Assembly: GCA_963751455.1 (NCBI GenBank)
Contig: CAVVUN010000015.1
Coordinates: forward strand, 1,280,001-1,344,000
DNA length: 64,000 nucleotides
DNA from: Nitrospirota bacterium
GTDB lineage: Bacteria; Nitrospirota; UBA9217
Reading direction: 5' to 3'
Shown: positions 14,389 through 47,909 of the stretch, in pieces
Numbering within the stretch: position 1 is the first letter of the stretch
How the letters are laid out: the number at the start of each line of letters is the position of its first letter
Program-made: the position numbers and the translations under genes
Notes under the pieces: model-generated
Told to the model about the DNA's origin: nothing
The model's input: the letters and a program-made list of their open reading frames with translations, nothing else
Database searches by the model: none

Positions 14389-14464
14389 CCAAAGTTTCTT
14401 TTTCATAATAAAGCCCGACGCCCTATCCAGCCCGCCCCTTCGCTGTTTTTGATTGAAACTTAAT
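14389..14464 (+). repeat. 76-bp direct repeat, copy 1
   Basis: Identical to 17573-17648. Confidence 0.9.
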
Positions 14465-15415: not shown

Positions 15416-15430
15416 TTCTGAGAAGTTTTG

Positions 15431-15717
15431 GTTGCCGAACACGGGGATGCGCTCCTCTGTGTTCGCTACAGATACGACGAGCAGAGCCGCACACGCTAAA
15501 AACCATAGAACTGATCATCGAATGAAAACCCTGGATGCCGACCTCACGCCGTTTCAACGATAATACACCGGTGCCTGTGCGAATTGAATATAGTGATAAG
15601 GCTTTGCGGGAAAAGGCAAAGGCGGCGCATGGAAAATGGGATCCGAAGACACGTGCATGGTATATTCAGTTCGGAAAAATCAAAGGAACCGAATTGGAAA
15701 AGTTTATAATATCATAA
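15431..15717 (+). pseudogene. Degraded small protein with a DUF5710-like C-terminus
   Basis: VAEHGDALLCVRYRYDEQSRTR*/KTIELIIE*KPW...KAKAAHGKWDPKTRAWYI, with stops and a frameshift; homologous remnant at 47620-47830. Confidence 0.7.
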
Positions 15718-15735
15718 ACCTGAGGCAACGAGAAA

Positions 15736-15849
15736 GCTTATGATACTATAAACAGCCAAAGCTTAGAATAGCATAAACCGGCTTATTCTATCATAAACTT
15801 GTTTGTCATATCATAAGCCGGTTTCCGAATAGAGATTAACTGGTTAACC
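15736..15849 (+). promoter_or_regulatory. Phased palindrome array ending in GTTAACC (attI-like)
   Basis: Units GCTTATGATACTATAAAC, GCTTAGAATAGCATAAAC, GCTTATTCTATCATAAAC and GTTTGTCATATCATAAGC (last three at 20-bp period); GTTAACC at 15843. Confidence 0.6.
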
Positions 15850-16612: not shown

Positions 16613-16668
16613 GGTCAACGAATCGTCCCACGCCGACCGCTACGCGGCGTGTGAACTCGTCGTTGGAA
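16613..16668 (+). repeat. attC-like site
   Basis: GGTCAAC...CACGCCG accgctacg CGGCGTG...GTTGGAA hairpin just after the methyltransferase. Confidence 0.65.
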
Positions 16669-17572: not shown

Positions 17573-17648
17573 CCAAAGTTTCTTTTTCATAATAAAGCCC
17601 GACGCCCTATCCAGCCCGCCCCTTCGCTGTTTTTGATTGAAACTTAAT
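17573..17648 (+). repeat. 76-bp direct repeat, copy 2
   Basis: Identical to 14389-14464. Confidence 0.9.
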
Positions 17649-18583: not shown

Positions 18584-20101
18584 CCTTAACGTTGCATAAA
18601 AAATCGCTATGCGGCCCGTTGCAATCGGTCGAGATAATGCAACAACCCCTTTTTGACTCGTGGATTGGCGTTCATTGTCAGAGTTAGCTTGCCGCCGGGC
18701 TGTGTCAGGCGGCCGGCACGCTGTATAAGTGTTCTTCGCAGGGTATTGGGCTCCGTGAACTCCCAAAGAGCGGCCCGTTTTTCGGTGGTGCCCCGGTCGG
18801 GTTCATGCGCGACCATGTGAAGTTCCTTCAGGAGATTGTGCGAGATGATCGCCGACATCATGTATAGCTGATTTCCGTGCAATCTTCTCACAGCCACGTA
18901 ATCCATATTGCACTGGGACTTTAGCTCTCCAAGGATGTTTTCCTGAGAACCGCGGCCCTGATGGAAGTTCAGGACTTTCTTCACCGTCGTTGTTTTGTTT
19001 GTAACGATCACCTTGAAGTCAAACCCGTATTCGTGCGGCGTGAACATATCAAGCTGCACCGGCTCTTTTGACTGCTTTTTGGCTTTTTGACGAATAAAAA
19101 GAAAGCGGAACCGGCTGTCCCAGCTTTTCGGCTTCCAGGGTGTGTCGAGATAGGAAACAACGGAATCGTAACGCCTCCAGCGTTTTTTGGCTTCGATCAT
19201 GTGTTTGAGTTCGGAGAACCGCTCAAAGGGGACCGAGATGGTGAACTCAATTCCGTCGCGCTCCAGCGCGCCGACGATTTCATCGCTGAAGAAAGCGCTG
19301 TCCATGCGCACTTCGATGACGATATCCGAACAGGTTGCACGCACCTGTTCGATGCACGCAAGGATGAACGCCCGGGCGCCGTTGGAATCATGTACGTTAC
19401 CCGAACGGGGCAGGACGTCAAGGACCATGCCCAACTGAGCGATCATGCAGAAAAGCGGATAATAGCTTCTCTGCCCTTTTTTCTTTTTGTTGAAGCCTAC
19501 GGCGGCACCCTCAGCCCATCGGGAGGTCGAGAGCACAGAGCCGTCGAAATCAAGCGTCACGCGACGAAGCTTCAAACCCTGTATGCGGGAGAGCGACATT
19601 TCCCGGCAGAACCGACGAAGATTCAAAATGTCCTTTGCGTCGACCGTCATCAATGCCCGGCTGATCGTGGAAACGTCCGGCATTTTTCGGAGGCCCAGAA
19701 GACGAAGCGCCATAAGGTCGTCCTGATAGTATTCGATGTCGCGGAGTTTCCGATAACCCAGCATCAGATGCACGATCAGCACGAGCGTAATGACGTGATT
19801 GCCGAAGATGGCGCTCGACGGTAGATGATCAAAGCAGCTTTTCAAGCGGGCTTTCAGATTCAGCTTCGTGAAGAATGCCTGAATGATAGCAAGGCCCGCG
19901 TAGGAAGTGAGCTGTTGATCCTCGAACTTCAGTTCCGGTATTTTGTGAACGCGGCTTAGAACCTGTGCTTTACTGGACTTCACTTTCAGTGGCCTCCTGC
20001 TTGAGTGAAATAATGATATCGCAGGAGCACTATATCCAATAATGAAGCCTGTTTCCAGAGGTTTCTGCATATTTTCAAGAAATGTTTATGCAACTACAAG
20101 G
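18584..20101 (-). mobile_element. IS1380-family insertion sequence
   Basis: IRs CCTTAACGTTGCATAAA / TTTATGCAACTACAAGG; TTTA duplication at 18580-18583 and 20102-20105. Confidence 0.88.
18607..19983 (-). CDS. IS1380-family DDE transposase
   Basis: LTSYAGL, TLDFDGSV, SYYPL, VRMDSAF, RGSQEN..GELK; likely GTG start with GGAGG RBS. Confidence 0.9.
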   Translation of the reverse strand: MKSSKAQVLSRVHKIPELKFEDQQLTSYAGLAIIQAFFTKLNLKARLKSCFDHLPSSAIFGNHVITLVLIVHLMLGYRKLRDIEYYQDDLMALRLLGLRKMPDVSTISRALMTVDAKDILNLRRFCREMSLSRIQGLKLRRVTLDFDGSVLSTSRWAEGAAVGFNKKKKGQRSYYPLFCMIAQLGMVLDVLPRSGNVHDSNGARAFILACIEQVRATCSDIVIEVRMDSAFFSDEIVGALERDGIEFTISVPFERFSELKHMIEAKKRWRRYDSVVSYLDTPWKPKSWDSRFRFLFIRQKAKKQSKEPVQLDMFTPHEYGFDFKVIVTNKTTTVKKVLNFHQGRGSQENILGELKSQCNMDYVAVRRLHGNQLYMMSAIISHNLLKELHMVAHEPDRGTTEKRAALWEFTEPNTLRRTLIQRAGRLTQPGGKLTLTMNANPRVKKGLLHYLDRLQRAA

Positions 20102-38435: not shown

Positions 38436-40556
38436 TCACCGCATCAGGCTTCCCAGCACGGTCTGCAGATCCTCCAGGCTGAAGGGTTTCCGCAGAAATG
38501 CCCGGAACCCGTGCTCTGCGTAGTTCGAGACCAGGGCATTGTTGGAATATCCGCTCGACACGACCGCGACCACAGACGGATCGATTTCCTTGAGCAAGCG
38601 AATCGCTTCCTCCCCGCCCATGCCGCCCCTTACCGTCGCATCGAGAAGCACGACATCAAACCGCGAACCCTCAGACAGTGCCGTGCGATAGCAATGGACC
38701 GCGGCAGCGCCGTCTGAAGAGTACTCCACCTCCTGGCCGAGCGTATCCAACAGGGCGCCGACAGAATCACGTATCACCTCTTCATCGTCCATGATCAGGA
38801 TCCGTCCTTTCCTGATCGCGGCAGGCTGTGCTGATCGGACGGAGCTGTCCGCGAGCGGCCCGCCGGCAGGCAGCCAGACGGTGAACGAGCTTCCCTTGTT
38901 CACCCGCGAAGAGACCTCGATCATGCCGCCATGGTTCTTGACGATGGAGTAGGACGTTGCAAGCCCCAGTCCGCTCCCCGTCTTTTTTGTCGTGAAATAT
39001 GGTTCGAAGATGCGCTGCAGATCCTCTTCGGGAATCCCGCATCCCGTGTCCCGGACCACGATCTCGATCCATTGACCCGAGCCCGGAACGCGCGTGGTAT
39101 GCGCATCGCCGCGTTCGCGGTTCCTTGCCGTGACCGAAATTATGCCGCCCCCCGGCATCGCCTGATCGGCATTGATCGCGATATTATGGATCACTTGTGT
39201 CAGCTGTCCCTCATCCGCATCGGCGGGCCAGAGCTCGCTGCCGATGTCGAACCGGCAGGCCGAACGGGACCCGCTCAGGGCGAATCGCGTCGCGTTCTCG
39301 ATCACGGAACCGAGCACGATTGATTTTTTCACCGGTTTGCCGCCCTTCGAAAAGGTCAGGAGCTGGGTCGTCAGGTTCACCGACATTTGGAGCGCCTTGT
39401 CAGCCTTTTCGAGCATAAGAAGAACTTTGTCGCGCTGGTCCACTTTCCGTTTTGCTACCGTCAGGTAGCTGAACGCGGCCTGGAGCAGGTTGTTGAAATC
39501 GTGGGCGATGCCGCCCGCCAGTGCGCCGATCGCCTCGATCTTCTGTGTACGCAGCAGTTCCGCTTCGATCCGCTTTCGTTCCGTGATATCCCGGGCGACA
39601 GCGATTACGACACGATTGCGCCCGTACGTTGCGGGTACAAACCGCACCTCCTGGGGAAAGGTTGTTCCGTCGGAGCGGATGCCGTAGAACTCTATGAGTT
39701 GGGGTTCTCCCTCAAGGGCTTTTCTAATCGCCGCCGTTACGTCCGCAAAAACGCTCAAACCCGGCGCGGCGAGCATATCCGGAGTCTTACCCAGCATGGC
39801 GGCGCGGCCGCAGCCGTACATGGTCTCTGCGCCCTTGTTCACATCAAGCAGCTTGCCGTTTTCGTCGACTACGTAGATGGCGTCGTTGATGCTGTTGAAA
39901 AGATTCCGGTAACCGGCCTCTGATTCCCGCACCTCCCCCAGCAGCTTAACGTTCTCGAACCGGAGCGCGATGGACGAGATGATCGTTGCATGATTGTTGA
40001 GTGATAACCCGAGAAGGGCGACAAGATAAATGATGCTCAGAATGCCCATGACATTTTCGTGTTCGCTGCCCTCTATGAAGCACCGGATTGCGAAGGGCAG
40101 AAGAACGGGGGTCATCCAGGCCGCGGGCGCGAAGCGGAGGGATGAGTGTGACACGGTCGTTGCTGCGGATAAACCGGCGATCATGAGCAGGAACATGGAA
40201 ATGAGCCCGTGATCTCCGGCAGGGAAAATGAGCACCGATGCAAGGCCCCATAGGACGCCGGAAGCAAAGACCATCTGCAGATAGACATTCTTCCAGGCAG
40301 TGACATTAAACTGTTCGTTCCGCACCCTGGTAAAGCGGGCATAATAAACGATCCTGCCGGTGACGATGAACAGGATCATGAGGGTCCATGCGGCGATATT
40401 TTTTAACGGAACAACGGTGCGTACAGAGTAGGCAAGAAGGAGTGCAACGACAAAGGAGCCCAGCTGCATCAACGGGAGATGACGGAGGGCAAGACGGACC
40501 TGCTCCCTGCCTATCGCGGCTTGGATTTCTTTGCCTGATGATGGCTCATTCCGCAT
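38436..40556 (-). CDS. Membrane PAS hybrid histidine kinase
   Basis: About 5-6 TM helices; PAS; AGGIAHDFNN; receiver ILIMDDE. Confidence 0.92.
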   Translation of the reverse strand: MRNEPSSGKEIQAAIGREQVRLALRHLPLMQLGSFVVALLLAYSVRTVVPLKNIAAWTLMILFIVTGRIVYYARFTRVRNEQFNVTAWKNVYLQMVFASGVLWGLASVLIFPAGDHGLISMFLLMIAGLSAATTVSHSSLRFAPAAWMTPVLLPFAIRCFIEGSEHENVMGILSIIYLVALLGLSLNNHATIISSIALRFENVKLLGEVRESEAGYRNLFNSINDAIYVVDENGKLLDVNKGAETMYGCGRAAMLGKTPDMLAAPGLSVFADVTAAIRKALEGEPQLIEFYGIRSDGTTFPQEVRFVPATYGRNRVVIAVARDITERKRIEAELLRTQKIEAIGALAGGIAHDFNNLLQAAFSYLTVAKRKVDQRDKVLLMLEKADKALQMSVNLTTQLLTFSKGGKPVKKSIVLGSVIENATRFALSGSRSACRFDIGSELWPADADEGQLTQVIHNIAINADQAMPGGGIISVTARNRERGDAHTTRVPGSGQWIEIVVRDTGCGIPEEDLQRIFEPYFTTKKTGSGLGLATSYSIVKNHGGMIEVSSRVNKGSSFTVWLPAGGPLADSSVRSAQPAAIRKGRILIMDDEEVIRDSVGALLDTLGQEVEYSSDGAAAVHCYRTALSEGSRFDVVLLDATVRGGMGGEEAIRLLKEIDPSVVAVVSSGYSNNALVSNYAEHGFRAFLRKPFSLEDLQTVLGSLMR

Positions 40557-40889
40557 ATGCTGTTTTCGGGACCAGTGTCATGTGAATGATCCTTGTTGGT
40601 TCGATGAAGAAGGGATGCGACCTGAAACTTTGGGGCTGTTGTGGAGTCCCAAGTGTCAATAGAGATCACCCGGCTAACTTATTTGCCGTGCCGACGTTCT
40701 CTCGCCAGGATACAGATTTTGGAATTGGCAGATTGAATTTCTGCAACTTTAAGTCAAATCGAGTATATTTTACACTTTAAACCCTGTCAAGATAAAGTTG
40801 TATGGAATTTGAAAAATAGTCAAGGCGATTATATGGCTGATTTAATTGAAGATTAAGGGGGCAGGCGAGGGGATGGCCCGTCGGTCGGG

Positions 40890-41939: not shown

Positions 41940-42134
41940 TTACACACGGCAACATCCGGAAACTCTGAGAACATGGCCGAATCGCCATCCGCTCTTACCG
42001 GGTCCATCAGGGGGCGTCAATTCCTCTATGAGCTTGGCTACCTGCTTATGTTGAGGCATTACGTCATTGCCGGCCGCTTGTGAGGCAGAATTAAATGATA
42101 AAATCATCGATAGGAGCATCAATAATTGCTTCAT
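41940..42134 (-). pseudogene. Truncated secreted-protein cassette
   Basis: Signal peptide MKQLLMLLSMILSFNSASQA directly after an attC; appears to break near 42015. Confidence 0.45.
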
Positions 42135-42160
42135 CTATTATTATGGGTCCGTTTGAAATC

Positions 42161-42226
42161 TAATAACGCGCGGCTGAGGAGCCGGGCGGGCTTATCGCCC
42201 GGCCTCTTTCGAGCCGCTCGTTGGAA
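42161..42226 (-). repeat. attC-like site
   Basis: Minus strand TTCCAAC GAGCGGCTCGA..GCCGGGCG..CGCCCGGC..TCAGCCGCGC GTTATTA. Confidence 0.75.
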
Positions 42227-42287
42227 TCAATGTAAAAACCTGAAAAACCGGCTTGACTTACCAAAGTCCTTAGATTATAAATAAAGC

Positions 42288-42539
42288 ATGCAATTAACTC
42301 ATGAAGCAAAAACATCGCTTGAGCGAGAATATGCCCTTTGCTCAAGCGCCATCGCCTTCTATAAAAAGTCGCTCAAAGAGTTCGAGCGAAAATACAGACT
42401 TACGACTAGAATGTTTCTAAAGCGCTTTGAAGCCGGTGAAATCGGTGATGATAGCGATTACTTTGATTGGTATGCCTTTTCACGGCTTCTTGCTCAGTGG
42501 CAGAAAACTCAATCGGCTCTTCGTACAGCGATCCGATGA
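42288..42539 (+). CDS. Antitoxin (TumA-like), TA cassette in reverse orientation
   Basis: LKEFERKY...FLKRFEAGEIGDDSDYFDW; upstream TTGACT-17-TATAAA promoter-like sequence. Confidence 0.75.
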   Translation: MQLTHEAKTSLEREYALCSSAIAFYKKSLKEFERKYRLTTRMFLKRFEAGEIGDDSDYFDWYAFSRLLAQWQKTQSALRTAIR

Positions 42540-42922
42540 TTAAGCGATATCTCGACAACATCGAAAAAGTTATTGGATCACATCCCGCAGTTCTTTCCTC
42601 TACGCTTCAAAAACAAATCGGACCAGACAGCAAAACGATATACCTCAAAGGCGCAATTACCTTCGTTGACCTATCGGTTCTTGAATTATCTGTATTTGCC
42701 ATTTCACTCTCTAGCAGAGTTGTGCCGGAGAAATATCGATTTCAATACATGGACAAGAAGAGCCAAATTGTTTTCCGCTACGATAATGCCCCTCATCACA
42801 AGGAACTATCAACTTTCCCTCATCATAAGCATCTGACTGATAAAGTAATTCCTTCCGAAATGCCTACACTTGCCGATATTCTTGACGAGATCAGCACATT
42901 CATAATTGAGGAAATAAGCTAA
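42536..42922 (+). CDS. DUF6516/TumE-family toxin
   Basis: YRFQY...FRYDNAPHH...FPHHKH; ATGA overlap with the antitoxin. Confidence 0.8.
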   Translation: MIKRYLDNIEKVIGSHPAVLSSTLQKQIGPDSKTIYLKGAITFVDLSVLELSVFAISLSSRVVPEKYRFQYMDKKSQIVFRYDNAPHHKELSTFPHHKHLTDKVIPSEMPTLADILDEISTFIIEEIS

Positions 42923-42958
42923 TATTAGTGTGCTCTACACGATTGAGGAAATTATATC

Positions 42959-43413
42959 AGGGTCAGGTCCATACTCTTTACCTTTTGTAGTGTCCGCACA
43001 GAATTCTGCTCACGTATGTGGAGTGCACGCCGAGGTGATCAGCAATTGAACGCTGAGTGTATCCGTACTTCTCGACAGCCTCGGCAATTTTTCTGTCCCG
43101 CTTAGGTTTGTTGTCCAGTATACTCTGAGTGAATATTTTTTCAAGTGTTGGTCTGTTGGCGTAACGCTGGCTCTTTGGGATCTCGGGAATATCTTTATGC
43201 CTTCTGAGATGATCGGCCAGGCTGTCAACAAAATCATCTTCGCCGAGAAGGGCCTGGCCCTTAACCTCATTCCAGATGGTTTCCTTGCCGATCCCCCATT
43301 TCACAAATTGGCGATATTCTTTCTCTGCCTTGCCTCTTGTTCGGCTGAATTGTCCGAGTACCCAGTCTGTGGTAAGACAAGGGTGGGCCGGCTCTTTCCC
43401 CCCTGTGGCCCGG
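42959..43413 (-). pseudogene. 3' half of type 2 RAYT-like element, copy b
   Basis: Near-identical to the 3' half of 14531-15388; right end AGGGTCAGGTCCATAC. Confidence 0.9.
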
Positions 43414-44355
43414 GAACATTAGGGTCAAGTCTTTTTCGTTGCATTTTCGTATTCACGAAGCCAGCGGCTGATTGTAGAATAGTGGACAGCCACATGGCGG
43501 GCTAGTTCACTCTGATGATAACCGTATTTTTCCACGGCCTCGGACACCTTTTTCATCAGTTTGCGATGATTGTTCATGACTGAGTCGGGCAGCAAAACGG
43601 CAAGCGACGGTCGAGTCGAATATCGCTGACTCCGGGGAATTTCGGGAATGTCCTTGTGTTTTTTGAGATAATCTGTAAGTTTATCTACGAAATCGTCCTC
43701 ACCTAAGAGCGCTTGGCCTCGCACTTCCGTCCAGATCGTCTTCTTCCCGATCCCCCACTGAACGAACTGGCGATACTCTTTTTCCGCCTTATCTCGTTTT
43801 CTGCTGAATTGACCAAGCACCCAATCCGTTGCGAGGCAGGGATGAGATTCAGCCTTACCCGCCGTCGCAAGGTAACTGGACCACTTCCAGTCTTCCGGCG
43901 CTTCGACCATCCTTGCTCTTACCGGATTTAGAACCACATATCGGCAGACCTCAAGGAGATGACTGTCTTTCTGGATCAGGATAGCCTTATACCGGCCCTG
44001 GAATAAATGCCCGGACCTGCCGTGATACTTGTTGAAAAGTTGCGTATACACGCTGTTCAATTGGCGCATGCCTAGGGAAAGATTGCCCTCCGGGGTCTCG
44101 ATAAGAAGGTGGTAATGATTTGTCATGAGGCAATACGCATGACAGATCCAATTGTACCGCTTGTTGACGTGCTGGACCGTGTTCAGGAAGTTTTCGCGGT
44201 CCTGGTCGTTTTTGAATACGGGCTTCTTCTCATTGCCACGAGATGTTACGTGATAGACCGCACCGGCATATTCTATTCTTAGAGGTCGGGCCATGGGGCG
44301 ACTGTAGCAGAAATCAGAATAAACTGCAACGAAAAAGACTTGACCCTAAAGATTC
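43414..44355 (-). mobile_element. TIR-bounded type 1 RAYT-like element, copy b
   Basis: Ends GAACATTAGGGTCAAGTCTTTTTCGTTGCA / TGCAACGAAAAAGACTTGACCCTAAAGATTC. Confidence 0.9.
43425..44294 (-). CDS. Y1/HUH transposase type 1, copy b
   Basis: Five amino-acid differences from 11634-12503 by eye. Confidence 0.93.
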   Translation of the reverse strand: MARPLRIEYAGAVYHVTSRGNEKKPVFKNDQDRENFLNTVQHVNKRYNWICHAYCLMTNHYHLLIETPEGNLSLGMRQLNSVYTQLFNKYHGRSGHLFQGRYKAILIQKDSHLLEVCRYVVLNPVRARMVEAPEDWKWSSYLATAGKAESHPCLATDWVLGQFSRKRDKAEKEYRQFVQWGIGKKTIWTEVRGQALLGEDDFVDKLTDYLKKHKDIPEIPRSQRYSTRPSLAVLLPDSVMNNHRKLMKKVSEAVEKYGYHQSELARHVAVHYSTISRWLREYENATKKT

Positions 44356-44727
44356 CTCTTATACCGGCCCTGGAATAAATGCCCGGACCTTCCGTGATAC
44401 TTGTTGAAAAGTTGCGTATAGACGCTGTTCAATTGGCGCATACCGAGAGAAAGATTGCCTTCCGGGGTCTCGATAAGAAGATGGTAATGGTTTGTCATGA
44501 GGCAATACGCATGACAGATCCAATTGTACCGCTTGTTGACGTGCTGGACCGTGTTCAGGAAGTTTTCGCGGTCCTGGTCGTTTTTGAATACGGGCTTTTT
44601 CTCGTTGCCACGGGATGTTACGTGATAGACCGCACCGGCATATTCTATTCTTAGAGGTCGGGCCATGGGGCGACTGTAGCAGAAATCAGAATGAAATGCA
44701 ACGAAAAAGACTTGACCCTAAAGATTC
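44356..44727 (-). pseudogene. Truncated type 1 element, copy c
   Basis: Left end plus first 103 codons, cut at FQGRYK by the left end of copy b. Confidence 0.9.
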
Positions 44728-44729
44728 TC

Positions 44730-44860
44730 CTTCTATGCGTAATGGACGAGCCATAAAGGGGAGTTTAGCAGAAGTTTAAACAAAAGTCCAACAGTATGGA
44801 CCTGACCCTAAGTAGTTCTCGTTCTAAGTAGTTCCTAAGTAGTTCTGACCCTAAGTAGTT
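44730..44860 (-). mobile_element. 5' end of type 2 copy b plus stuttered end repeats
   Basis: Encodes MARPLRIE; carries the type 2 left end; CTAAGTAGTT x4, twice preceded by CTGACC. Confidence 0.88.
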
Positions 44861-45681
44861 CTACCATGAATATATTCGAAGTCAGTCTTTTTTAGGTCTT
44901 CTCTCTTCGCGTACTTATAGTAAAATTTCAATATAGAAGGTTCATCATACAGCATTGTGACTTGACCATTTGAATTCATCAGAAATGGTTTTAGCCAAAA
45001 TGGTCTGGACGGATTTTGCTTTTTTATGAATGTATTTAGTTGCGATTGAGGGCTATGTGGAAATAATTTACAAAAAGTCATCTGCATTATAAGACGCTGA
45101 TGCTCCTTGTCATATTTCTCGTATTTGTTTTTCTCCTCAATCGTGGTGAAAAAATCGGAAATCACTTTTCTATCTTTATTGGGGTAAATATATGTGGAGT
45201 ACTCTGACTCATTTTCGACGATAAAGGATATACAGATATTATTTTCTCTATCCTCCTTGGTGCCATAATTCCATGACGAAATAAGATCGAAAAAATTCCT
45301 CGCATATTCGAGAGACGCAAAAGCGCATCCGACGACATTTAGCATGTTTGCCTCTGATTCGGCAGGAGTTGCGAAAGCCATCCCTTTCCATTCAGATGGA
45401 TCATACGTAAAATTCGGCATAGGCTGAACATATATGGATGTGTATTCAAATACAGCCCTTTCAAGGAATTGTTGAAATAGGAATAATGCAACGGCAAGTG
45501 ATAACGATATGTACCATGTAGGAATTGAAATGATGCTTGTAGCAATGCCCACTGCTGTCAATATCCGTATCGACCATTTAATTGGTCTCTCATATTGTTC
45601 GTGAACAACTAATTTGGGTATCCCTTTACGGAATCTTATATCTACAAGGCTTCTGAGAGCTACTTTCCACTTTCCTTTCAT
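44851..45681 (-). CDS. Hypothetical membrane protein (AT-rich, cassette-like)
   Basis: Two N-terminal TM helices; AGGAG RBS; stop codon falls inside the element-end stutter. Confidence 0.75.
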   Translation of the reverse strand: MKGKWKVALRSLVDIRFRKGIPKLVVHEQYERPIKWSIRILTAVGIATSIISIPTWYISLSLAVALFLFQQFLERAVFEYTSIYVQPMPNFTYDPSEWKGMAFATPAESEANMLNVVGCAFASLEYARNFFDLISSWNYGTKEDRENNICISFIVENESEYSTYIYPNKDRKVISDFFTTIEEKNKYEKYDKEHQRLIMQMTFCKLFPHSPQSQLNTFIKKQNPSRPFWLKPFLMNSNGQVTMLYDEPSILKFYYKYAKREDLKKTDFEYIHGRTT

Positions 45682-45725
45682 TATTGGTCTCCTACTGATC
45701 TACATTTTCCACGTTGGTCGGAAAT

Positions 45726-46502
45726 TTATAGCCGACGAATAGCTGTTTCAATATAGTCGTCATTAAGGTAACCATTAATGATGCTAAACATCCCCAAAAC
45801 TTCAAAAACGTACTGGCCGATGTACTTCACTGGATCTCCCGAGTACATGTCGAGATTTTTCAAGAGATAAGGTCTTTGGCCAACACGTGTTAGGATAGCC
45901 AGCGCCTTGGTATCCTCAGTTTGAATCGTTCCCAATGCGTAATTTACCTGCTGTGCAAAAAGGTCGCTAACAACAAGAATGTCTTCGAGAAACTGTTCAT
46001 TAGACTGAAGTCCATTTAGAACATCGTACCATCGCTGCTTATTGTCTCCAGCAAAATATTCCCGAAATCGTTTGAAATTAACTAGTTCTTCCTCAAGTTT
46101 TGAGTCTGTTGAGTAGCCACCATTCATGCCCCTTAAGCACGCGCTAACAAGATCGCGCCTCCACTCATGATACTGCGCGCGAAGGTGTGCCCGTAGGGTT
46201 TCTTTCCTTCGGAACTCCTTATCTTCGTTGCTCTGACGGGCTACCGCATTGAGGAAAAGACCTATTGTCACAATACCAAAAACTGCTTCAAGAGCAGCGA
46301 GTATTCTGGCCGGCTCTGTTTGGGGTGCAATGTCGCCGTATCCTAATGTGGTGATTGTTACAACACTAAAATAAACGCTCTGTATGATCGTGAGAGGTTC
46401 TTTCCAAAAAGAAGGCTTAAGATAATAGATAACGCCAAACGCCGGTATCAACAGCAGATAGAAAAAACCTATGGCAACCGGGCTATGAAGTAATTTCTTC
46501 AA
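45726..46502 (-). CDS. Potassium channel pore-domain protein (cassette-like)
   Basis: YFSVVTITTLGYGDIAP selectivity filter. Confidence 0.88.
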   Translation of the reverse strand: MKKLLHSPVAIGFFYLLLIPAFGVIYYLKPSFWKEPLTIIQSVYFSVVTITTLGYGDIAPQTEPARILAALEAVFGIVTIGLFLNAVARQSNEDKEFRRKETLRAHLRAQYHEWRRDLVSACLRGMNGGYSTDSKLEEELVNFKRFREYFAGDNKQRWYDVLNGLQSNEQFLEDILVVSDLFAQQVNYALGTIQTEDTKALAILTRVGQRPYLLKNLDMYSGDPVKYIGQYVFEVLGMFSIINGYLNDDYIETAIRRL

Positions 46503-46515
46503 GATGACTCCAATT

Positions 46516-46575
46516 GAATAACACGAGGGTGAGGGGCGCGTTTGTCAGCGACCCGCTCGACCCTTATCGTTAGAA
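46516..46575 (-). repeat. attC-like site
   Basis: Minus strand TTCTAAC GATAAGGGTCGAGCGGG...CCCCTCACCCTCGT GTTATTC. Confidence 0.7.
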
Positions 46576-46593
46576 TCACTGTTTTCTATCGAG

Positions 46594-47031
46594 TTATTTA
46601 CTGAACGCATTCCAGAGACTAGCTATTGCCGCTATAGAACTGAGCAGCAAAGTGGCCCAGGGCAATATTACTGAATGTCTATCTTTCAACTCTGCCCTTA
46701 CGCACTTTCTGATTTCATTAAAACCTTTTTCCGTTAGAACATCTTGATCATTGTAAATGCTCTTTTTCCAAGCGTCCTTATCTGTGACTGGTGGGATAGG
46801 TATAGACTCGATATCAGCCTTCAAAAGAATATGTTTAGTTTTTAACTTTTCGATATCATCAAGAGTGTCAAAATAATCAGGTGAGAACTCCTGACGCAGG
46901 TTGTCCAATGCCTCAGCTTTGAGGCCTTTCTTCCTTCCTTTTTTAACCGCTTTTTCAGCTTTATAGTCAATCCAAAAGAGTTTCCATCTCAGCTTCTTCA
47001 TTTTAATGCGGAACAATAGATCATTGATCAT
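46594..47031 (-). CDS. Hypothetical protein with C-terminal TM helix (cassette-like)
   Basis: AT-rich ORF with AGGAG RBS. Confidence 0.7.
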   Translation of the reverse strand: MINDLLFRIKMKKLRWKLFWIDYKAEKAVKKGRKKGLKAEALDNLRQEFSPDYFDTLDDIEKLKTKHILLKADIESIPIPPVTDKDAWKKSIYNDQDVLTEKGFNEIRKCVRAELKDRHSVILPWATLLLSSIAAIASLWNAFSK

Positions 47032-47119
47032 AATATGCTCCTAAGAATTATGAACAACAAAGCAATAAAACCGTGATAATTGCAGGTGGACTATCCGAGT
47101 CAATGCTGAGTGTCCAGCA

Positions 47120-47503
47120 TTATTTTTTATAATCAATGCTAATCGTATAATCAAAGTGAACCCAGCAAGGATGACCACGGACTTTGTTTTGGCAGATTAT
47201 CTGGCCAGAGAATGAAGACGTGTTGTTCAGGATGAGTTCGTTGATTCTATTCCCAAGGTCAAAAGAACCCAAACAATCGACATGCGGACAGTCGTATTCG
47301 AATATTGCCGTGCTATCAACGTCGTACTTGTGCGGACCGCCACGCTTTTCTTTCCAACCACCAGTTTCATTCAAGGAAGTCACATATGAAACACTAATAG
47401 TCGCGACATTCGGATATATTTCCTTTATGGTTTTAGAATAAGTCATCATGAGATGCTTTCTTTCAGCACGTGATTGCTCGGGCGTCATCTTCTTTTTTCT
47501 CAT
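47120..47503 (-). CDS. Hypothetical Cys-containing protein (first cassette)
   Basis: CPHVDC...C...C; starts shortly after GTTAACC. Confidence 0.7.
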   Translation of the reverse strand: MRKKKMTPEQSRAERKHLMMTYSKTIKEIYPNVATISVSYVTSLNETGGWKEKRGGPHKYDVDSTAIFEYDCPHVDCLGSFDLGNRINELILNNTSSFSGQIICQNKVRGHPCWVHFDYTISIDYKK

Positions 47504-47520
47504 TTATAGTTTTTCCTGAA

Positions 47521-47608
47521 GGTTAACAAGTTATTGACTATAAGCAAATGGTTTATGTTAGCATAAACAAGTTTATGATAGCATAAACCGGTTAATGGTA
47601 TCATAAAC
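47521..47608 (-). promoter_or_regulatory. Phased palindrome array ending in GTTAACC (attI-like)
   Basis: GTTTATG-N4-CATAAAC-type units at 47551, 47571 and 47591; GGTTAAC at 47521. Confidence 0.65.
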
Positions 47609-47619
47609 TTGTTTGGGTT

Positions 47620-47830
47620 TTATGATATAATAAATTTTTCCAATTCTGTATTCCTGATTTTTCCAAATTCGATATACAGGCGCGAGTCTTAGGATTCCAC
47701 CTCCCCTGTACAGCCTTGGCCTTTCCCTCAAGTCCTTGTCGCTATACCCTATTCGGACCGGCACCGGACGCTGAGCGGCCGGAACCCACGGAGTTCTTTC
47801 GATGATCCGTTCCACCGTCTTGAGCTGAGT
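47620..47830 (-). pseudogene. Second degraded copy of the DUF5710-like gene
   Basis: LKTVERIIERTPW...PVPVRIGYSDKDLRE, with frameshifts; homologous to 15431-15717. Confidence 0.7.
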
Positions 47831-47909
47831 CCGGCTTGGATATCAAACAGCCACTCAGCATTAATGCAAACGATGTTATTTTTTCCACATCTTTTACTCC
47901 CCGAGCATC

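Follow-up and report, generated by a model that had tools for sequence, protein, structure and literature searches.

The usual integron platform consists of an integrase gene (intI), a cassette promoter (Pc), and an attI site. For most integrons attI is undefined and lies beyond the search made by IntegronFinder, as stated in the available part of PMC4889954, and the cassettes of attC site clusters that have no integron-integrase (CALINs) can be acted on in trans, according to the accessible text of PMC9668308. The sections of a review available to us (PMC8946536) argue in addition that insertion at attI by some chromosomal integrases requires as-yet-unknown accessory proteins. Here, we analyzed a 64,000-nucleotide stretch of a Nitrospirota bacterium (lineage UBA9217; assembly GCA_963751455.1, contig CAVVUN010000015.1, positions 1,280,001 to 1,344,000), referred to below as the window, which carries two cassette arrays, platform 1 on the plus strand and platform 2 on the minus strand. 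Platform 2 is an integron cassette array with an attI-type head and without an adjacent integrase. This head, made up of the remnant of a gene that we call gene X, a set of phased palindromes, and a GTT core, would be an apparently undescribed integron part, with no description of the module in the literature searched, mostly without subscription journals and supplements.

The head of platform 2 and its two attC sites, the latter scored with a hidden Markov model (HMM) and a covariance model, are arranged as follows.

47620..47900, minus strand: gene X pseudogene, with clear homology from 47836 to the stop at 47620 and a decayed 5' third
47618..47635, no strand assigned: palindrome 1, degenerate, overlapping the last gene X codons, in the same place as the anchored first palindrome of relatives
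47591..47608, no strand assigned: palindrome 2, 1 mismatch
47571..47588, no strand assigned: palindrome 3, perfect arms
47551..47568, no strand assigned: palindrome 4, perfect arms, ending 23 bp ahead of the GTT
47521..47550, minus strand: attI-type core, with the predicted crossover between the G and the TT of GTT at 47527
46516..46575, minus strand: attC site 1, HMM E value 1.3e-7, covariance model 57 bits, bottom-strand folding z score -2.3
42161..42226, minus strand: attC site 2, HMM E value 2.2e-6, covariance model 54 bits, bottom-strand folding z score -3.9

A first-pass annotation of this DNA had proposed an integrase-less cassette platform on the minus strand, and all of its features were found at the positions it gave. 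GTTTATG-N4-CATAAAC starts at 47551, 47571, and 47591 with 0, 0, and 1 mismatches and an exact 20-bp period, bearing out the three palindromes already described, with the degenerate fourth copy (47618-47635) having been overlooked. The 27-bp gap between palindromes 1 and 2 suggests that one site of the usual five was deleted. Six matches at ≤2 mismatches were detected in the window, three at each platform, compared to 0.18 expected, and none of 100 shuffles reached 6; across the genome, palindrome clusters occur solely at five heads with gene X. The sequence TAACTTGTTAACC was located at 47533-47521. When all 164,063 genomic GTT sites were ranked with a matrix built from 54 foreign modules, the platform 2 core came 6th and the platform 1 core 2nd, and the same matrix found the four intI-adjacent attI sites of the genome at ranks 27, 41, 46, and 211.

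The attC HMM was trained solely on sites outside the window, and the covariance model was built from 35 such outside sites; these profile models took over from a strict heuristic finder, which missed both platform 2 sites. Both models recovered the attC-like sites noted earlier at 46516 and 42161, whose bottom strands fold and which are co-oriented with the cassette open reading frames (ORFs). With the profile models, no attC was found after ORF1, ORF3, or ORF4, leaving just two attC sites for about six genes. No intI match was obtained in the window (best E value 0.5), and none lies within 4 kb.

We then compared the head with its relatives, taking the best 80 of 587 genome matches and, as a distant set, the best 80 of at least 596 metagenome matches. 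The first palindrome was anchored in 77 of the 80 genome loci, the commonest array had five sites with gaps of 45/25/20/20, and 111 of 184 inner gaps measured exactly 20 bp. A GTT was found in 61 loci, and in 55 of these it lay 23-24 bp from the last palindrome; the distance was 21-24 bp in 48 of 60 distant loci. Among distant loci with enough flank, 60 of 70 had at least three palindromes, compared to 0 of 44 control windows. An insertion of about 150 bp, common to two modules of this genome (C1:5400-5706 and C2:651942-652216), lies inside the palindrome array and splits the last site and the core from the rest.

Of the 68 genome loci with 2.5 kb or more of DNA upstream, 38 had a divergent intI-like gene there, in some cases partial, and 16 of 59 distant loci had a co-oriented one upstream. 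When 19 of the 57 listed ORFs were run against TIGR02249, all 17 upstream integrases passed, whereas the two downstream recombinases failed. The nearest relatives of the platform 2 site type mostly have intI upstream. In the distant metagenome loci L130, L139, L154, L184, L195, and L196, a co-oriented integron integrase ends about 20-75 bp before gene X in an operon-like arrangement.

Cassette insertion at the GTT is evident at the family level from the complementarity between the four bases after the GTT and the left end of the first attC, which scored 2.43 of 4 compared to 1.44 in shuffled sequences (p 5e-5; control 1.5) in 14 distinct modules whose first attC could be scored; the two platforms of the window fell outside the script filters, and platform 1, scored by hand, matched at 3 of 4 bases. 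The DNA right after the GTT was compared across the 10 distinct close modules having sequence there, duplicates aside, and proved unrelated from one to the next. Altogether, the head is a genuine attI-type module.

The first-pass annotation had also reported the same pseudogene at both platforms, in agreement with a DNA identity of 72% over 233 bp; relative to the platform 1 copy, the platform 2 copy has one 15-bp deletion and two 1-bp deletions. The platform 2 remnant was recognized by an HMM match (E value 0.006) and by DNA alignment with an intact relative. Rather than an isolated relic, this "pseudogene" belongs, though broken, to a large gene family that is subject to purifying selection and usually stands between intI and attI. 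Homologues made up 502 of 514 candidates, with 2,365 clusters at 50% identity. Sampled genomes from the same family carried gene X in 16 of 36 cases, compared to 0 of 24 for other families in that sample, and two phylum samples had it in 28 of 300 and 9 of 401 genomes; titled relatives belong to Nitrospirota and Geobacteraceae. The genome at hand carries two intact paralogues; palindromes, an AACT(T/G)GTT core, and attC cassettes follow in both cases. Even where intI is not adjacent, gene X is under purifying selection, with a median ratio of nonsynonymous to synonymous substitution rates of 0.10 (44 computable of 55 pairs, from 11 genes).

The encoded protein has about 115 residues in two domains, and its stop codon lies about 100-130 bp ahead of the crossover. 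Many homologues carry the annotation DUF5710 (PF18974), which scored 20.8 and 21.6 bits against gene X, under the Pfam cut-off of 26.5, and an Atlas search returned unnamed clusters and DUF5710 only. The alignment-based structural model was confident per domain (predicted local distance difference test [pLDDT] 93.9; predicted template modeling score [pTM] 0.60), and modeling of the N-terminal domain from a single sequence gave a poor result (pLDDT 73, pTM 0.41) in conflict with it. No Foldseek match to the model was obtained at E≤0.001, and the best Z score against known structures was 4.0.

To which protein do the palindromes belong? One possibility is that they serve IntI, or a host factor such as LexA, as accessory sites, with X a linked passenger; in the part of PMC8946536 available to us, attI1 has IntI-bound accessory repeats in a similar position, and at platform 2 the sites are better conserved than the X remnant. 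We consider this reading improbable. Of 29 loci chosen by intI, the 17 without gene X and with at least 900 bp of flank have no palindromes, the sole locus with gene X has four, and the other 11 are short of flank; the palindromes thus accompany gene X and not intI. The same palindrome occurs with two very different IntI groups, divergent as well as co-oriented, and modules without intI retain both X and the sites. When all 18 Leu-type and all 16 TT-type matrix matches (the two site types distinguished below) were inspected, no site of ≥15 bits was listed at the starts of three lexA-like genes, and the LexA-box reading was rejected. On C2, one lexA-like gene (C2:654571-655110) is found about 2 kb upstream of the intact gene X module. 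Where two neighbouring palindromes meet, the sequence resembles a dif core; a Xer/dif reading was dropped, as it is the 18-mer that is homologous throughout the family, with junction letters that vary with site type.

The passenger reading also has to contend with residue 8 of protein X, which covaries with site type. All 105 proteins with non-TT half-sites have Leu here, compared to 1 of 21 with TT half-sites, where V, S, A, or I stands instead, in a table where three rows lack the residue and one borderline row was classed by consensus. It is the best of 105 columns for tracking half-site type and sits in the N-terminal strand. The automatic palindrome caller took 4 of 13 new loci, two of them mis-registered; with four rows added, residue 8 and palindrome type agree in 129 of 130 proteins. 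Among new loci read by eye, GTT-type sites accompany C, T, and C in L211, L212, and L218 and I and V in L249 and L045, GCAT-type sites accompany Leu in five proteins, and L219 is irregular. The TT-type sites occupy separate branches of the tree. A second candidate, covariation of residue 9 with base 8, looks like a single clade and was not kept.

The co-occurrence of the sites with X, the purifying selection on X where intI is absent, and the tracking of half-sites by residue 8 all point to X as the likely binder of the palindromes. Taken as a whole, this comparative evidence favors, with moderate confidence, a role in which protein X binds the palindromes and would gate or shape cassette insertion at the neighbouring attI site.

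Several observations weigh against this interpretation. The residue 8 link is post hoc and involves 5-6 changes on the tree, with two well-supported independent pairs, which is formally insufficient for significance. The first palindrome overlaps the coding end of gene X, so linkage alone ties the palindromes to the gene. Fold searches gave no clear match of X to a solved DNA-binding fold (such as ribbon-helix-helix or three-stranded beta-sheet). Integrases of this family also stand beside attI sites without gene X, and one locus (L267) has a module-type core with neither gene X nor palindromes; gene X is therefore dispensable for attI, as related integrases use such X-less heads. At platform 2 itself, junction complementarity scored by hand was 1 of 4 bases, with ORF1 lacking an attC. 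Furthermore, its three sites and core are 83-90% identical to those of relatives (intact pairs 84-96%) compared to 69-74% for its X remnant (intact pairs 80-87%). Because both gene X copies of the platform 2 type in the genome are broken, this site conservation is hard to explain if the cognate X were the sole ligand; the docking end may have been conserved after the loss of X by continued integrase use or by promoter activity.

In the main rival, X would bind the palindromes in order to regulate transcription: as a roadblock or repressor it would restrict how far transcripts from the upstream promoter read through into its own gene and the cassettes, with no part in recombination. In many relatives gene X lies downstream of a promoter of the type TTGAC-N17-TAAAAT, so transcripts to the cassettes must cross the palindrome array, and all the evidence that the sites go with X suits this explanation equally. 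Promoter-like hexamers on both strands of the palindromes (47575-47604) could in addition explain why the sites outlasted X. Nonetheless, we regard it as unlikely. The fixed spacing of the array is to the crossover and not to the promoter, and it is unusual for operators to lie several hundred bases downstream of a promoter. The promoter-scan matches reach 9 of 12 positions only, with 27 matches in the region compared to 14.5 expected.

Events at this locus could be pictured as follows. IntI, first encoded adjacently or supplied in trans, would have inserted cassettes at the crossover at 47527; intI and its promoter would then have been lost from the locus, X would have decayed, and RAYT (repetitive extragenic palindrome-associated tyrosine transposase) elements and loss of attC sites would have eroded the array. 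In an intact module, X dimers would sit on the palindromes, the 20-bp period placing them on one face of the helix, and the last site, 23-24 bp or about two helical turns from the crossover, would lie beside the position where IntI must bind. There, X might shape or gate the attI x attC synapse in place of the IntI-bound DR1/DR2 repeats of attI1; we lean toward an architectural helper rather than a blocker of insertion. In a stronger and more tentative form, which we hold possible with somewhat less than even confidence, X would be a sequence-specific integron accessory protein that licenses insertion, with residue 8 setting the site type, and X heads lacking intI would be satellite docking sites served in trans. 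If so, gene X would be a fourth platform part beside intI, Pc, and attI, its N-terminal strand would read the palindromes, and the satellite docking sites could be served by any integrase in the cell.

The distribution of heads bears on a further explanation, in which X, the palindromes, and the core form a small mobile unit of their own that spreads attI sites through genomes, with X acting in the movement, in contrast to a vestige of whole integrons. The genome contains at least 15 attI-type heads, five with gene X, eight of a second leader type with other palindromes, and two with the core only, together with 66 attC matches at E<0.05. None of the five X heads has an intI remnant within 4 kb, none of the 14 loci closest to P0001 has intI upstream, and across the survey the module was found divergent to intI, co-oriented with it, or without it. 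We find such a unit very improbable: no recombinase or transposase domain was found in X by domain and fold searches, no conserved left end was seen by eye upstream of gene X, and a further close relative (L224) does have intI upstream. Four of the eight X-less canonical heads in the genome are also orphaned, so orphaning can occur without X, and among viral and plasmid records only one of each matched.

We next considered whether the array is still active. The first-pass annotation had left it either dependent on an integrase in trans or now fixed; the latter is favored, since every intI in the assembly is truncated or interrupted. Five attI-type heads have intI remnants and none an intact intI. 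The genome search for intI and further palindrome arrays, suggested at that stage, returned only broken integrases, and arrays at the five gene X heads. Unless the assembly is in error, the cassette array, with no intact intI in the assembly, is probably frozen. A search of this genome for recA gave nothing over the cut-off (best E value 6e-7) despite a stated completeness of 100%, and an assembly gap is possible. Three of the broken integrases (C1:553957-555285, C2:446969-448669, and C3:356533-358123) have a long N-terminal extension, their intact relatives measuring about 450-500 residues, and their lesions comprise a RAYT element, multi-copy short insertions (11 and 7 copies), and a 10-bp deletion. 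None of the relatives fetched carries the module next to the immediate flanking genes of platform 2.

Downstream of the core, platform 2 contains the following genes and elements.

47120..47503, minus strand: ORF1, 127 residues, no family match, no attC of its own detected
46594..47031, minus strand: ORF2, 145 residues, no family match
45726..46502, minus strand: ORF3, 258 residues, with a two-helix K+-channel-type pore domain at residues 15-89
44851..45681, minus strand: ORF4, 276 residues, no family match over the cut-off
42960..44811, minus strand: nested RAYT (Y1) elements, one full (43419-44349) and one partial type-A copy splitting a type-B element
42536..42922, plus strand: TumE-like toxin, PF20126 85 bits, NF045777 86.8 compared to a cut-off of 90
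42288..42539, plus strand: TumA-like antitoxin, NF045776 E value 4e-6, under the cut-off; PDC-M44A in PADLOC
42253..42281, plus strand: promoter-like motif of the toxin-antitoxin pair, TTGACT-N17-TATAAA, seen in the sequence and absent from the consensus scan list
41940..42134, minus strand: short ORF of 64 codons after attC site 2

The four co-oriented ORFs had been described as AT rich and as including a K+ channel. The cassette ORFs have a GC content of 40.4% compared to 53.4% between the platforms, and ORF3 matches the Ion_trans_2 domain (PF07885, 66 bits), with the TxGYGD filter motif visible in its translation, while scoring under the cut-offs of full-length channel models. A weak homologue of ORF2 lies downstream of another gene X module (L110). 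The 64-codon ORF is likely a truncated last cassette. Regarding the reversed toxin-antitoxin cassette with its own promoter, the pair itself matches PDC-M44A/B in PADLOC, with TumE passing the Pfam threshold and just missing that of NCBIfam and TumA well under its cut-off, whereas the promoter motif, recognizable by eye, was not returned by the consensus scan.

Invasion of the array by Y1 elements was likewise confirmed: the Y1 genes belong to the RAYT family (NF047646, 94.5 compared to a cut-off of 80), and the nested elements are bounded by terminal inverted repeats. Four of the six RAYT loci of the genome lie less than 5 kb from an attC, a zone that covers 5.8% of the genome, and the other RAYT locus in the window cuts gene X of platform 1; RAYT elements may target integron DNA. 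Beyond the array, 40764-40791 on the minus strand is a coreless fragment of the canonical attI leader of the genome, consisting of a promoter-like motif and a palindrome (similarity at about 40710-40801, 85% over 95 bp), upstream of a histidine kinase gene at 38436-40556.

Platform 1, whose head lies 31.7 kb from that of platform 2, has the following features.

15428..15849, plus strand: platform 1 head, with a RAYT element interrupting the gene X remnant, five palindromes, and the GTT at 15843
16613-16668, no strand assigned: weak attC

A perfect 76-bp direct repeat (14389-14464 and 17573-17648) flanks this platform, and a DDE transposase gene (DDE_Tnp_1_4) at 18607-20070 closes its array. 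The first-pass annotation had treated the two platforms as a convergent mirror pair. As a meaningful unit, or the product of recent duplication, the pair was rejected: over its last 85 bp, platform 2 shows 90% identity to three foreign modules compared to 76% to platform 1, so this is no recent duplication, and the two are among at least 15 heads. By a chance estimate, a given pair would fall within 32 kb in about 1% of cases and some pair among 15 heads in about 70%. The mirror arrangement looks incidental, with the proximity of the sole two heads of the platform 2 type mildly unexplained.

Among known systems, platform 2 resembles an integron platform in its workings and qualifies as a CALIN, not as a complete integron. 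As to Pc, the family promoter was not found upstream of its X remnant, where the scan gave weak 9-of-12 matches only. In common with CALINs as defined in the available part of PMC4889954, it shows two or more attC sites together with cassette-like ORFs, with no intI nearby, and it differs by keeping a recognizable attI core and the module upstream of it. Owing to the RAYT insertions, its attC sites are 4.3 kb apart, just over the 4-kb clustering threshold given there, and the default setting could split them. Single attC sites and attG (SALIN/attG), as covered in the accessible text of bioRxiv 10.1101/2022.09.11.507474, share with it cassettes located away from the integrase gene; attG sites are chance genomic sites, whereas the module at the head of platform 2 is conserved and shares homology with intI-adjacent attI regions. 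The copy in the window is a relic. Some CALINs keep a real docking site, and the module offers a sequence handle for attI sites.

The similarity of X to DUF5710 (weak, at 21 bits; best E value 0.04 in a viral fold library) concerns its C-terminal half and leaves out the N-terminal domain that carries residue 8. ORF-11 and ORF-17 of attI1, as described in the available part of PMC8876359, resemble gene X in being reading frames between Pc and the first cassette; they are short peptides acting via translation coupling, whereas X is a two-domain protein under purifying selection. A further parallel is attI1 with DR1/DR2, which, in the accessible sections of PMC8946536 and PMC3146285, shares the GTT core and directly upstream repeats that possibly favor attI x attC recombination. 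By the latter source, as far as available, such direct repeats are missing from most environmental attI sites. In DR1 and DR2, IntI binds direct repeats that are core-like; the module instead has 4-7 palindromes of 18 bp that are unlike the core and come with a separate gene. A platform-encoded protein with phased sites by the crossover would be a candidate for the kind of accessory factor argued to be required by some chromosomal integrases, in anaerobe and soil-bacterial integrons, which have yet to be investigated at the bench.

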